From: Convolutriloba macropyga
Taxonomy: Eukaryota
Direction: 5' to 3'
Assembly (NCBI RefSeq): GCF_964194025.1
Contig: NC_134468.1
Coordinates: 78,058,001 to 78,122,000 of the forward strand
Length of the DNA: 64,000 bases
The translations under genes were made by a program, and so were the position numbers. Every line of letters starts with the position of its first letter. Position 1 is the stretch's first letter. This document shows, piece after piece, positions 19,473 through 27,607 of the stretch. The notes below the pieces were generated by a model. The model was not told the DNA's origin, searched no databases, and saw only the letters and a program-made list of their open reading frames with translations.

Positions 19473-20357
19473 ACTGCTCGAAACATCATCTTGTTTGTTT
19501 TCAGGTGAACAGGCAGTTGTATAATGAACCATGGCAGGTGTTGGTGGTTCTCGCAATAGTGTTTTGTCACACTCGCGGGTTTATTAATCTTCGGAGCAAA
19601 ACTTGAACTCACTGCTTTTACGCTAACTGTTGTGACTTTATACTATTCGAGCGCATTTAACGCTTTCTTATCAGTGGTAATAAACAATATAACGTATTGC
19701 TAACAGTATGTGTGTACATTTTGTGTGTGTGTGGTTACTAGTTTATTGTATAGACTATTTATGAGAATATATACAAACTAAGACCAGCGTATGCTAGGAA
19801 CATTCTGTTATTGCTTTCTTATCGTGAAACAGTTTTAAAGGAATTTGCTTTTGTATGATCAAGGTTAAGTATGTGCTTAATAAATCAAATCCCATTTAGT
19901 CTGTTGGTAATAAATAGCTTTACCAAAGCAATGATCAATACTCCAGTTTTTTGTATTTCCAATCATTTTAATGCGCAGCCAGGCTAGCGAAAAGAAGGTA
20001 TAAGTCCTGAAAAACTAATTGTATGCAGAAACTGTTTGAACAAAACCTACGAAAATTAGTTATCGATTTCATCAATATACCCAAACAACCGTGTAACCTT
20101 AAATTTTTTTCTGGCTACAAGTGAATATTTTAGTGAAATTGAAGGGTTTGATTTTGATATAGCGCTAAAATTGAGGCCCTACGGTTGTATCATCGGCATA
20201 GATTATTCTTCAGTAGATAAATACTTGAAATGCTTCATATGCTTACATGGAAAAGCAGCAACTGTTTTAGCGGTCAATTGTCGGGAATATTGTTTTGCTT
20301 ATATATAAAGGTTTTTCATCCGTCAATTTATCTTTTATTGGAATGCTAGACAACAGA

Positions 20358-20958
20358 ATGCTAAACAGTTGTGTTAGACGTTGAAGGGTTTCGTCACAGA
20401 AAAGTAAATTTTATTGATAGAGAATTCGGTATTTGTACCGAGGACTATCTTGACTGCGTGTCATTTTTACCTTCTATAAAATATAGTGAGTTAACAGCTC
20501 AACAAAAGCAATCTTTCAGTTGGTTGACTAGAAATTTGCACGGCATTGATTGGGACACAGGACACTATCCATATATTTATCTTACACCGATAGCTCAAAG
20601 CGTTCGCTTGAGGAATCCGGGTGCAATATTCTACTAATTTTTGTCAGATTTGCTTGAGTGCTATATCATTGATCTGAATTCACTCGCGTGTCCTTCGATA
20701 TCTGTGAACTATTTCATACAAAACTGTCAAAATCATTCAAAAGGCAAAATCATTTTCAACAAACATTGTGCAGAAGAAAAAGCCATATTCTATTTCAACT
20801 GGTTAACAAATGAGATAGGAATTGGCGAAAAAGGAAGCACCCTTGTCACCGAGTTCATAAATTTGCACCTTGATTACGGGGGACGGGAATCTGAGTCTTT
20901 CAATTTCCAAAGACGAAACCATAAAAACCGGAAACCAGTTTCTACAGAGAAAAGTTAA
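20358..20958 (+). pseudogene. Polinton DEDD/DnaQ-fold nuclease-like gene, left arm, disrupted
   Basis: VLDVEGF (ExoI-like DxE), REFG, WLTRNLHGIDWDTG, in-frame stop at 20635-20637, then CQNH...KHCA. The upstream ATG (20358) is out of frame. Confidence 0.6.
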
Positions 20959-21574
20959 ATTGTTGCTGACTGAGGACGATGTTCGCTTTTTACTCATTTA
21001 TTATTTTATATTGAATCTTTTCTTCAGTGGAGAACGCTAAATTTCAAAAACTCAACCTAGAGTCTGTACTCTGAGAGTCTTACTGCTGTCGATGCACCCG
21101 GTTGGTGAAGAAATTGACAAGAACGATCCCTGCCACTCGTTCCCTGCCAACCCTTGACAATCACTGCCAAAAGAGATTCAACAGTTGATGAAGGAAGAAA
21201 GAGTGCACAAAGCTGTTCATTATGACAAATCTGAGCGACTCACTGAGTGCTTTATGATCCATATGAAAGACTTTCTAACTTTTATTTTAAAAAAAAATTA
21301 TATTGTCTCGAGACAGAGAGAGTAACAGTTGATCAAGCAGACGCTGTTGTAGAAGAAAGTTTTTTGAAAAAGAAAAAAGCAGCAAATCTTCATGGAAATT
21401 TTGTGATCAAACAACGTTGCCACGGTCAGAAATTGTATGTTTCGTTCTAATATTTGTTATATTACTGCTAATATCACTTAAATTAACCGTTTTAAAACCA
21501 AATTGTGAAGAAACATCAGTTAGGATATCAATATTGTCAAATTTAGTTGGATACAATTTACCAAATCCAAGACT

Positions 21575-24190: not shown

Positions 24191-24479
24191 AGGGTTAATT
24201 TAACAATGCAAAGTGATATTAGCGGTAATATAACAAACATTCGAACAAAAAATACAACTTCTGACCGTGGCAACGTTGTCTGATTACAAAATTTCCATAA
24301 AGATTTGCTGCTACTTTTTTTTTCAAAAAAACTTTCTTTTACAACAGCGTCAACTTGATCAACTGTTATTCCCTCCGTCTCGAGACAAAATAAATTGTTT
24401 TAAAAAATGTATTGAGAAAAAGTCTTTCTACATAAAACAATTCATAGCAATTGAACTCAGTTAGAAAGTTTTTCTTAGA

Positions 24480-24783
24480 GCACTCAAGCAAATCTGACAA
24501 AATTTAGTAGATTATTGCACCCGGATTCCTCAAGCGAACGGTTTGAACTATTTGTGTAAGATAAATATAGGGATAGTGTCCTGTGTCCCAATCAATGCCG
24601 TGCAAATTTCTAGTCAACCAACTGAAAGATTGCTTTTGTTGAGTTGTTAACTCACTATATTTTGTAGAAGGTAAAAATGACACGCAGTCAAGATAGTCCT
24701 CGGTACAAATACCGAAATCTCTAACAATAAAAATTACTTTTCTGTGACGAAACCCTTCAACGTCTAACACAGCTGTTTAGCAT
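24480..24783 (-). pseudogene. Mirror copy of the DEDD-fold nuclease-like gene, right arm (3' half deleted)
   Basis: LDVEGFRHRKV...HGIDWDTGHYPY with the same premature stop. The counterpart of about 20660-21280 is missing. Confidence 0.6.
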
Positions 24784-27607
24784 TCTGTTGTATAGCATTC
24801 CAATAAAAGAAAAATTGACGGAAGAAAAACCTTTATATATAAGCAAAACAATATTCCCGACAATTGACCGCTAAAACAGTTGTTGCCTTTCCATGTAAGC
24901 ATATGAAGCATTCCAAGCATTTGGTGTAAAATAGCGTGCAATCGTAATACTTTTGAGATTTTCAAGTATTTATCTACTGAAGAATTATCTATGCCGATAA
25001 TACCACCGTAGGGCCTCTATTTTAGCGCTATATCAAAATCAAACCCTTCAATTTTACTAAAATAATCACTTGTAGTCAGAAAATAATTTAAACTTACACT
25101 GTTGTTTGGGTATATTGATGAAACCGATAAGTAATTTTTGTAGATTTTGTTCAAACAGATTCTGCATACAATTGGTCTTTAGGACTTATACCTTCTTTTT
25201 GCTAGCCTGACTGCGCATTAAAATGATTAGAAATACACAAAAGTTGGAGTATTGATCATTGCGTTGGTGGAGCAATCTATTACCAACAGACTAAATAGGA
25301 TTTGATTTATTAAGCACATACTTAACCTTGATCATACAAAAGCAAATTCCTTTGAAACCGTTTCAAGATAAGAAAGCAATAAAAGAATATTCCTAGCATA
25401 CGCTGGTCTTAGTTTGTATATATTCTCGTCAATAGTTTATACAGTACACTAGTAACCACACACACACACATACACACACACAAAATCTACACACATAATG
25501 TTAACAATACGTTATAATTTTTATTACCCCTGATAGGAAAGCGCTAAATGCGTTCGAGTAGTATAAAGTCAAAACAGGTAGCGTAAAAGCAGTGAGTTCA
25601 AGTTTTATTCCGAAGATTAATAAACCCGCGAGTGTGACAAAACACTATTGCGAGAACCACCAACACCTGCCATGGTTCATTATACAACTGCCTGTTCACC
25701 TGAAAACAAACCAGATGATGTTTCGAGCAGTGGAAGTGTGTGACATTCTTTTGTGAAGCTGACCTTATAAATTCTGACTATTTCTTAATTGAATTGTCAG
25801 ATATTTCAGCTTATTTCAAGTAACAAACTCTAGCAAAAAAAAGTACTTCATATTATTCGTGGTAAAAGTCACTATTATCTTGAAAGGAAAATTTTACAGT
25901 CATAACTTTTTTTCCGTTGTGGACAAAAAATACACTCTAAATGGTATCAACACGTTTTAAGAGGAATTTAAGAAATGCGGTTTGCTTTGAATTGGATCGT
26001 AAAGAAAAAGCAATACCAATAAAACTATTTAAGAGCCCTTTTACTCACTTTGGCATTACATGGTCGATTGCACAGATATGCTAAAAATAGAATTCAAACT
26101 CAAACTCAGCCTTGTTTTGTGGTTTCCACACCAAAGTTTTGTCTACCATGTATTGAAGTCATACATGAACACTTCAAAGAAGAAGTTTTCATAGAAACAT
26201 AAATGGGTTACTCGCCTGCAAAATTGTCAAAATTATGCCTTTTTTGTTCTTAATCTCTCACATTTTTTTATCCACAATTTCAGCACAAATATTCAAAAAG
26301 ACCTTGTACACTTAATACTGTACAATTGGTCGTCAGCTATTTTAGCCGACTGTTCTTTTATAACATTTGGTTCGCAAAATAGTGATAGTTTTAACTAAAA
26401 AATTGTAAAAAGTAACAAAAAAGCATATATTCAGCACCCAGTTAATCACTATTATTTGTTTCGCCAAGCTGTTAAATGACAAAATTTCATTGAAAATTGC
26501 GTTTCAACTAAGAAACATCACTTTATTCTAAATTATTCGCCCAAGAAACACAAACTTTTTCATTTTTCTGTCAAAAAACCCGGAAAAATTGCAAAAAATT
26601 AACAAAAACTAACATGCAAACAACACCCAATTACTCGTTATTAACTGTTCGAGGAAACTTTCACACGAAAAAACTTTGGTGCCCACTCTCTTATAACTAG
26701 CATAGAACATTTAATTCTACCTCCTTACCTCAAAAATTAACAATTTTTGCACATTTTTGGTCTTTTTTCGTCAAAAATACAAAAAATGTAGGTACAAGTT
26801 ATCACTTAATAATATTTAATATAAGACCGAGTCCTTAACAGTATTTCTCCTACCATATATTAACAGTTTTTAAATTGTGTAAAAATGCTTATTGGCGGCG
26901 AAAAAAACATTTTTTTAAATCTTTTTACTACCAAAAAGCAGCAACTTTTGCACTTTTTTAAATTTTTGTCTGTTTTTGACGCAAAATGTCTTCAAAAATA
27001 CACCTTAAGCGCTCCACTCAAACCATTTTCAACCCGTATTTCACCAAAATTCAATTTGCCCCCACATCAACCATTTCCCGACACAGTAATGAAGCGATAT
27101 AATCACTTTTTTAACCAATTTTCAGACAAAATTTAAACCCCAATTTCTTCAATTTTTCAGTTAATTTTCACGATTTTTTGACCCCCATTCATTCTCATGC
27201 GGTGTTTTCAGTTCGAAACTCTACTTAAAACTTCTCTCTAAGCTTTAAATTCAACAAACTTCCAATTTCATTACTTCGCACTCACTTGTTAATTCAAACA
27301 TATGGGCAATAAAACCCATAAAACTAATACCACTTTTGCCTTCCCAGACTCGCAAAACTATTAAATTTCTTACATTAGAACAAAAATTTATCAAATTTAA
27401 ACTATCCTTTTCTTCCCTTACCTCAGTATTCCATCAGATTAGTCACTTTTGCTTTTCAGTCCTTCATTAGTCTCATTAGACTAGAAAAAGGATTCAGAAT
27501 TTTAAAAAAAAAATCAAAAATTTTTGAAAAATTTTACAGGTTTCACTCATTCACAGCCCCAACTTTTTTCCAAAAAAAATTTTACAAGCTCCACCACTCT
27601 CAAATCC

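Follow-up and report, generated by a model that had tools for sequence, protein, structure and literature searches.

A single-copy, 25-kb fold-back of a Maverick left half in Convolutriloba macropyga, with arms that were probably converted in patches

Introduction

Both fold-back and conversion between inverted arms are known processes. In yeast, fold-back inverted duplications have been described after breaks, as induced chromosomal rearrangements in nuclease mutants, and they were not tracked over evolutionary time (PMC10622511). The arms of the human Y palindrome P6 are more than 99.9% identical and undergo GC-biased conversion (PMC3723533). For the extended terminal repeats of the transposon Galileo, an origin by break repair and conversion has been proposed, and one sentence of the same source states that inverted-repeat expansion has been reported for Polintons (PMC3573991). 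Adeno-associated virus yields snapback genomes, which are parvovirus replication products found in particles (PMC8235507). In vertebrates, Mavericks have terminal repeats of 46-1447 bp, as compared to 2.3 kb in the relatives of the element described here, and palindromes and gene conversion go unmentioned in that account (PMC8097293). We found no report of a folded Maverick, or of conversion between Maverick arms, among the titles listed in the openly accessible literature searched.

Here we analyse a Maverick fold-back in a 64,000-nucleotide stretch of the Convolutriloba macropyga assembly (NC_134468.1, 78,058,001 to 78,122,000; hereafter the window). All comparisons rest on one haplotype of this assembly. 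A first-pass annotation had taken the lesions common to both arms as a sign that one already dead template was folded, and had mentioned homogenisation of the arms by conversion as a bracketed alternative. It is this alternative that fits the mosaic reported below best.

Results

Positions 11129-36547 of the window are a single-copy fold-back of the left half of a Maverick, a 25-kb mirror image (Table 1). The palindrome extends outward to both termini, which had previously gone unnoticed. It is bounded by one 6-bp target-site duplication, GATAGA on both sides, and a paralogue of the empty site lies nearby. The left end, AGTGGT, is one substitution away from AGTAGT and the right end is ACTACT, in agreement with the (AGT)2//(ACT)2 ends of Mavericks, and terminal inverted repeats are present; in ordinary copies, the terminal repeat stops at the equivalent of 14570 / 25856. 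A piece of the right arm matches the Pox_A32 profile (27.1 bits, cut-off 22.8), and this gene is broken in both arms. The half that carries integrase, protease and putative capsid genes is missing, such that the element is not a complete Maverick; it is broken and single-copy, without sign of function.

Table 1. Coordinates in the window of the folded element, its tracts and its surroundings ("shared", rare states shared by the arms)
Feature	Position	Strand	Details
Left target-site duplication	11123..11128	+	GATAGA
Left terminus	11129..11604	+	AGTGGT and 13.5 copies of a 35-bp minisatellite
Body of left terminal inverted repeat	11605..14570	+	with local duplications
Inserted copy of adjacent host flank (10540-11047)	11978..12462	+	in left arm; 6.2% diverged
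Second, partial host-flank copy	12976..13262	+	6.9% from flank, 4.1% from first copy
Three tandem units	14310..18975	+	~1561 bp each, ~2% apart
Homogenised tract 1	18976..19670	+	28 shared; 25 differences/545 sites
933-bp deletion joint, left arm	19547..19550	+	GTTC
Diverged tract	19671..20232	+	11 shared; 47 differences/555 sites
Left-arm junction via short repeat	20229..20233	+	49 bp shorter than right arm
Homogenised tract 2	20233..20571	+	common 7-bp insertion; 18 shared; 12 differences/332 sites
Diverged tract	20572..21814	+	7 shared; 50 differences/493 aligned sites
Stop from common 21-bp deletion, nuclease-like gene	20635..20637	+	64 bp past modelled border of tract 2
Broken A32-type packaging ATPase gene	21604..22220	+	end approximate
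Homogenised tract 3	21815..22579	+	ATPase frameshift near 22124; 38 shared; 18 differences/764 sites
Diverged tract adjoining apex	22580..22861	+	2 shared; 26 differences/280 sites
Apex	22853..22874	.	perfect 9-bp stem, 4-nt loop
Right arm	22857..27610	-	inverted left half without tandem units
Right minisatellite and terminus	27606..36547	-	~250 copies of 35-bp unit, then ACTACT
Right target-site duplication	36548..36553	+	GATAGA
Host paralogue of both flanks without element	37360..38575	+	empty site near 38190-38240

The element belongs to a family of hundreds of copies with recombinant ends, whose full-length relatives measure ~14 kb and have 2.3-kb terminal repeats. One of these encodes an rve integrase (2e-9) and a Peptidase_C5 (4e-7); its frames of 453 and 289 residues have no Pfam match, and from their size and position we take them to be putative capsid genes. 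None of the 14 frames of one relative matched a protein-primed DNA polymerase B, and no polymerase was seen in the window or the fetched family copies among the 77 matches listed (91 of 3891 candidates scored, judged by eye). The family searches scored the best 40 candidates each, and two further DNA searches for nearer relatives returned nothing closer than 87-92%. Three loci that share the minisatellite terminus had been candidates for close kin; they proved to be a distant subfamily, a repeat-only derivative and an old full-length copy that is no closer than the other copies. No allelic partner of the locus was found among the unplaced contigs.

Where the apex lies, ordinary copies carry an 8-bp stem that is interrupted by a single bulge and hence imperfect. 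The centre of the palindrome is therefore a short native inverted repeat that has been made perfect, as is characteristic of fold-back inverted duplications. With a z of -0.8, this native hairpin is a weak one, which implies that such sites are common. A search of the whole assembly with the apex pattern, allowing up to 2 mismatches, matched the window locus only, and none of the 28 nearest loci holds a palindromic copy. An amplified foldback or MITE-like family, in which many copies would have the same apex, is not supported by these results. A single read run contained next to none of the sequence words, and two contigs match single arms at below 90%, none of them across the apex, which is not informative. 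The only opposed pair closer than 30 kb outside the window, among 100 listed of 213 matches, is on contig C3789 and consists of two ordinary copies rather than a fold-back; the 45 outside matches of a second search contained no further pair. Among 71 ten-kb stretches scanned, one locus (L078) has an inverted repeat longer than 530 bp and 13 others have shorter ones; the L078 repeat lies within the terminal repeat and might represent a second, smaller folding event.

The two arms are sisters in all four segment trees (33-40 rows, 100% ultrafast bootstrap), and they remain so (100) in the diverged tracts alone. They hence group together and not with different subfamilies, which, along with the single target-site duplication, bears out the first-pass view that these are not two independent insertions.

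The lesions that it listed as common to both arms are all there. The joint of the 933-bp deletion, GTTC at 19547-19550, is mirrored at 25654-25657; GTTC also stands at 14879 and 15812, 933 bp apart, and the joint pattern has two matches in the whole assembly, both inside the element. The nuclease-like gene carries a 7-bp insertion close behind its start in each arm (near 20353-20359), together with a 21-bp deletion to which the premature stop is due (mirrored at 24504-24506), and none of 34 other copies has the arms' length at either place. Each arm is also 1 bp short in the ATPase gene (near 22124 / 23600), a loss absent from the 38 other copies compared. Thus, none of the common lesions occurs in any other, non-palindromic copy compared. 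Private substitutions and indels likewise run up to the apex in each arm, where the 61 sites compared at 22800-22861 include 9 differences and the last left-private site is at 22852.

What had been missed is that the divergence between the arms is patchy. The arms are a mosaic of three tracts that are 3.4% apart and hold most of the shared changes, and three that are about 9% apart (9.1%), which resembles the 10% between the terminal repeats. Without recourse to an outgroup, differences are unevenly distributed along the inner arms (chi-square 48, 11 df, p 1e-6), while the sum of shared changes and half of the differences is evenly spread (p 0.34). Shared and differing sites are clustered: they fall into 98 runs, where shuffling gives 132 on average and none of 20000 shuffles went as low, and a two-state model of their order gains 37 in 2 lnL. 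On the other side, no such clustering was detected within the window's terminal repeats (p 0.55), and none that was significant in 7 terminal-repeat pairs of ordinary copies. Branch lengths follow the same division: tips of 0.053/0.050 and a stem of 0.025 in the diverged tracts, 0.063/0.052 and 0.021 in the terminal repeat, and 0.019/0.013 and 0.064 in the homogenised tracts. Tracts of shared derived states with lowered arm divergence are what arm-to-arm conversion produces. The three tracts are compatible with a single age (p 0.08). The border of tract 2 coincides with the left-arm junction at 20229-20233, after which derived letters of the right-arm type follow, and within the diverged tract 20572-21814 the right arm lacks ~570 bp.

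For the homogenised columns, the ratio is 0.89 in 31 other copies pooled, as opposed to 0.40 and 0.33 in the arms, which indicates that other copies do not mutate less there, though this control, like the trees, uses columns picked by the same model and is partly circular. A ratio of at most 0.5 also occurs in 3 of 21 more diverged copies listed (L046, L087 and L100). The coding changes common to the arms in the homogenised tracts (21 non-synonymous, 7 synonymous) give a ratio of 0.76, compared to 0.22-0.37 between ordinary copies, and look unselected. In the unconverted parts, a residual stem of 0.02 contains 6 non-synonymous and 3 synonymous coding changes, 9 in all, and these do not discriminate between a template that was live and one that was dead. 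The shared changes show no GC bias at the low power available (27 towards G/C, 29 away, p 0.63). Such a bias is not a requirement for conversion as such.

Further evidence comes from the left arm. Its three tandem units retain a 110-bp and a 933-bp segment that neither the innermost unit nor the right arm still has; the "deleted" 933-bp segment is thus still present in the left arm, which had been overlooked. An estimate made without the segmentation uses the pieces that the first tandem unit keeps outside the terminal repeat. Of their 265 sites, 25 are unlike the right arm (9.4%, interval 6.2-13.6%), comparable to the terminal repeat (132/1277, p 0.74) and unlike the homogenised tracts (55/1641, p 4e-5). 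The innermost left unit, which is tract 1 and contains the 110-bp and 933-bp deletion joints, clusters with the right arm (96/94) and not with the neighbouring tandem units; it opens with junction letters of the left type and then switches. Furthermore, the host flank captured by the left arm differs by 6-7% from the flank next to the element and by 17% from the flank's paralogue, and no closer match than the adjacent flank exists in the assembly. Since this captured adjacent DNA has drifted by 6-7%, the element has aged at its present site.

Discussion

In our reading, a single, now broken fold-back of a Maverick left half probably arose at about the time of insertion, and its arms were probably converted in patches later, in place. 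The 3' end of a strand would have folded at the short hairpin and been extended along the left half, such that a copy of the left half replaced the one with integrase, capsid and protease. This may have taken place on a molecule undergoing replication, which was afterwards integrated by a helper integrase, the setting that we slightly favour. A little less probably, it took place in the chromosome shortly after insertion, where the newly made strand would have joined up with the right terminal repeat again. Both arms would then have decayed independently until, at about two thirds of the present divergence, repair copied three tracts of 0.3-0.8 kb between them, with the right arm as the donor for tracts 1 and 2 at least. 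Along with substitutions and small indels, the copied tracts would have brought the 110-bp and the 933-bp deletion.

That the fold is old, as first proposed, is borne out, and what lacks support is the order of events. If one dead template had been folded once, and the palindrome had spread and its arms diverged before it landed at this locus, shared and differing sites should stand in an even ratio along the arms; instead, their order is strongly clustered, with the shared changes mostly confined to tracts of low divergence and the others as diverged as the terminal repeats. Moreover, the left arm keeps the 933-bp segment at 9.4% from the right arm, the apex is single-copy, and the captured flank speaks for ageing in place. 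Nor does the intact target-site duplication point to earlier spread, because 6 bp are expected to stay intact with a probability of ~0.5 at 10% divergence. In favour of this idea, the arms are sisters with lesions found nowhere else, and the 21-bp deletion falls beyond the modelled tracts, in surroundings with 8 arm differences in 94 bp, so that the nuclease-like gene may already have been defective in the template. Hence, this stop may, as a single lesion of the three, predate the fold, whereas the folding of a dead template with subsequent spread is already largely refuted and, to our minds, improbable. Slightly less improbable, and still unlikely, is a late fold in place on one haplotype, with arms that were identical 3.4% ago and a left arm that was then patched from a deeply diverged allele. 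The common lesions would then be older than the fold, the homogenised tracts could share one age, and the innermost unit would supply homology for rejoining the right terminal repeat. The price is a pair of alleles of one insertion that are ~9% apart and nearly as old as the insertion, along with an allelic patch that must end within 1 bp of the apex stem.

It is very unlikely that two copies were fused head to head, or that one arm was patched from other loci of the family. The arms are sisters even in the diverged tracts, there is one target-site duplication with an empty-site paralogue, the apex sits on a hairpin, and the lesions are missing from the other copies, of which the best 40 candidates were scored per search; the hundreds of copies with recombinant ends and the close opposed pair on C3789 are what could be cited in its support. 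Least probable of all, to the point of being hardly credible, is an artefact of assembly or polishing that made the arms alike in patches. The one read run listed does not cover the apex, which would suit such an artefact, but the homogenised tracts keep private changes on both arms (16 left and 11 right in 1157 columns), and one of them includes the 933-bp structural difference. The private changes equally bear out the earlier rejection of a read fold-back artefact.

If the preferred history, a fold at about insertion followed by patchwise conversion, is correct, the locus is a dated natural record of a spacerless 25-kb palindrome that persisted in an animal chromosome, in which the centre stays diverged and the sequence of the other arm, with its deletions, replaces that of inner tracts. 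It also counsels caution, as neither lesions common to the arms nor the divergence of the terminal repeats alone date a fold. Should the fold have preceded insertion, the locus would preserve the trace of a by-product of Maverick replication, about which little is directly known. We tentatively entertain the possibility, somewhat against the balance, that Mavericks produce snapback genomes bearing two left ends, which can be integrated by a helper integrase, and that this locus is a fossil of one, recording spacerless conversion at ~6% divergence with kilobase deletions. As the genes face the apex, transcription through it would yield a long hairpin RNA directed against the hundreds of copies in the family; such a role is hypothetical and we think it very improbable.

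As compared to known systems, the (AGT)2//(ACT)2 ends, terminal inverted repeats, 6-bp duplication and A32-type ATPase are those of Mavericks/Polintons (PMC8097293), whereas two left halves without the integrase, protease or capsid half are not. With the yeast fold-backs, the element has in common a short, naturally imperfect inverted repeat at the centre that became a perfect palindrome, and a far end healed by homology with a repeat; it differs in being a two-ended transposon with a target-site duplication (PMC10622511). P6 likewise has kilobase-scale tracts copied between inverted arms (PMC3723533). Unlike P6, the arms would have been ~6% apart at conversion, there is no spacer, no GC bias is seen, and large deletions were transferred. 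Galileo has also drawn internal sequence into its inverted repeat (TIR1-F1-F1-TIR2), though by hundreds of bases and in the P superfamily, where the repeat of the present element takes in 3 kb of coding sequence and reaches an apex that has no spacer (PMC3573991). The snapback genomes of adeno-associated virus are self-complementary as well, with the left or right part of the genome between identical ends, but they are carried in particles, while the locus is a chromosomal fossil from a different virus group (PMC8235507). For the window element, an extrachromosomal origin is a proposal.

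Architecture of the element and its family

The features of the folded element, in which two left halves of a Maverick lie as mirrored arms around an apex, are listed in the table. The left arm also carries two captured pieces of host flank, and both arms contain a broken A32-type ATPase. Relatives are numerous in the assembly: one search gave 304 candidates and another 1225, the best 40 of each being scored. Full-length relatives are about 14 kb long with terminal repeats of 2.3 kb, and beyond the equivalent of the apex they carry an rve integrase, two frames of capsid-like size that were without match, and a C5 protease; a polymerase was looked for in them and none was found. 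The element is a defective Maverick derivative, not a complete Maverick. The name "nuclease-like" for one of its genes is tentative and goes back to an acidic motif; a Pfam search gave no nuclease match.

Positions of features in and around the element (window coordinates)
Feature	Position	Remarks
Whole element	11129-36547	starts AGTGGT, ends ACTACT; lesions sit mid-element
GATAGA on either side of the element		6-bp duplication
35-bp minisatellite, left end	11141-11604	13.5 copies
Three tandem units	14310-18975	left arm; ~1561 bp each
Homogenised tracts 1-3	18976-19670, 20233-20571, 21815-22579	5.1% shared, 3.4% different
Diverged tracts	19671-20232, 20572-21814, 22580-22861	1.6% shared, 9.1% different
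Apex of inverted duplication	22853-22874	perfect 9-bp stem, 4-nt loop
35-bp minisatellite, right end	27606-36533	~250 copies
Host paralogue of both flanks (empty site)	37360-38575	

Of 59 matches to a two-unit pattern of the terminal 35-bp minisatellite, 58 lie inside the element, and a further minisatellite of 22-31 bp, confined to the left arm, has grown at a 110-bp deletion joint (19299-19468). Minisatellite and short-hairpin terminus types are swapped among subfamilies (termini of L074, L078 and L082; L033:3093-3170), one of which is merely 66-71% alike inside. In six copies (L034, L035, L038, L040, L045, L051) the match to the window is confined to the part inward of the equivalent of 20237, and these have a different upstream part in common; ordinary copies often carry internal tandem duplications of 1.7-4.6 kb (L036, L039, L064-L065, C7:58066997-58077291).

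Two long minus-strand frames, at 2394-8861 (2155 residues) and 40878-42596 (572 residues), look like parts of one large host gene, putatively RNF213-like, and the element may lie within an intron of it. In 46603-53078 lies a direct repeat of 3 kb, now decayed, which has retrotransposon-like frames and a 132-bp inverted repeat (49609-49740).

The arms are sisters with a mosaic of divergence

Eight arm segments were aligned with 50 fetched family stretches, rows being kept if they covered at least 80% of the segment (19-41 rows per segment). Trees were built for four segments, and in all four the window copies form one clade with 100% ultrafast bootstrap. The arms are therefore sisters in the phylogeny that the first-pass annotation had proposed, and two independent insertions, which it had rejected, are excluded within the sampled copies. 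The three lesions it had reported in both arms are present where it had placed them. The 933-bp deletion joint has two matches in the assembly, both within the element; among 34 other copies, none has the lengths that a 7-bp insertion and a 21-bp deletion produce in the nuclease-like gene, and none of 38 has the ATPase deletion of 1 bp. The 21-bp deletion speaks against the conversion reading given below: it lies 64 bp beyond tract 2, where 94 bp hold 8 differences, and may be older than the fold.

The arms have indeed diverged, though patchily: by 1-14% inside, as against 10-11% in the terminal repeat. Along the inner arms both the differences (p 1e-6) and the rare states shared by the arms (p 0.008) are unevenly spread, whereas shared sites plus half of the differences are even (p 0.34). 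In arm order, and leaving aside 27 ragged bases (21265-21291), the 104 shared and 178 differing sites fall into 98 runs where 132 are expected; none of 20000 shuffles gave so few. With tracts defined by a two-state model, the tree stem is 0.064 and the tips are 0.019/0.013 for homogenised columns, and 0.025 and 0.053/0.050, respectively, for diverged ones (terminal repeat: 0.021 and 0.063/0.052). The column sets are equal in total depth and only the split between shared and private changes differs, the state trees and the choice of columns being partly circular. Rate variation would push shared and private changes up together; the ratio of homogenised to diverged columns is 0.89 in 31 other copies pooled, versus 0.40 and 0.33 for the arms. 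Shared coding changes in the homogenised tracts (21 non-synonymous, 7 synonymous) appear unselected, and no GC bias was seen among shared changes. The 6 non-synonymous and 3 synonymous changes on the short stem of the unconverted parts are too few to tell a live from a dead template.

Age of the fold

Terminal repeats of such elements are identical at insertion, so that the 132 differences in 1277 sites in this element date its insertion (young relatives: 1-7 in about 917). Neither the diverged inner tracts (123/1328; p 0.36) nor the pieces that survive in the first tandem unit and are not terminal repeat (25/265; p 0.74) can be distinguished from this value. This puts the fold at about the age of the insertion, and the intervals would accommodate a fold in roughly the first third of the element's stay. 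The view that the fold postdates pseudogenisation is not supported for the 933-bp deletion, since three units of the left arm still contain the 933-bp and the 110-bp segment and the template was hence undeleted there.

The element has aged in place: host sequence 10540-11047 was copied twice into the left arm, and the copies are now 6.2% and 6.9% off the flank and 17% off the flank's paralogue; the assembly contains nothing closer from which they could have come. It had been suggested that an intact target duplication beside diverged arms fits spread of the palindrome before landing. At this age, however, 6 bp are expected to stay unchanged about half the time, which makes the duplication uninformative. 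The apex is single-copy in the assembly, and the 28 nearest loci all lack a palindrome.

Origin of the fold and of the homogenised tracts

Ordinary copies carry an imperfect hairpin exactly at the position of the apex. This is compatible with fold-back priming, yet is no rare feature, because the hairpin is weak (z -0.8). We suggest that such priming at the native hairpin began the process. A helper integrase would then, somewhat more probably, have inserted a two-ended molecule; chromosomal folding soon after insertion is a slightly weaker candidate. The arms would have decayed independently, and the three tracts would later have been converted, arm to arm. Elsewhere, a 2.3-kb derivative consisting of terminal repeat only (L078:7377-9647, on C13), whose two ends differ in terminus type, turns back at an imperfect native hairpin (35-nt loop, z -3.7); it represents either another fold-back event or the outcome of a deletion between two repeats.

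Homogenisation by conversion, a bracketed alternative in the first-pass annotation, gains support from the clustered shared sites and from the innermost left unit, which groups with the right arm. This unit opens on junction letters of the left type before it switches, suggesting that sequence was copied from right to left. A junction through a short repeat makes the left arm 49 bp shorter at the border of tract 2, and derived letters of the right type follow, as expected from a repair strand rejoining out of register. A late fold, followed by the left arm taking patches from a deeply diverged allele, seems improbable to us; for it speaks that the three tracts may share one age and represent one episode (p 0.08). 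A search for an allelic partner among unplaced contigs found none, and the apex, seen in one haplotype, has no read coverage.

Comparison with known systems

The feature is real, and the kinds of process are known, while folded and converted Maverick arms are new among the literature searched: we found no paper on them, subscription journals and supplements being outside the scope. Fold-back priming is described at yeast breaks (PMC10622511), and according to a review inverted repeats of 5-9 bp are sufficient in yeast to cause such duplications (PMC7999016). The element resembles Galileo in its repeat extension (PMC3573991) and AAV in its snapback genomes (PMC8235507), and can be likened to the Y palindromes, with their arm-to-arm conversion, as a fold-back inversion maintained by the same kind of exchange (PMC3723533).
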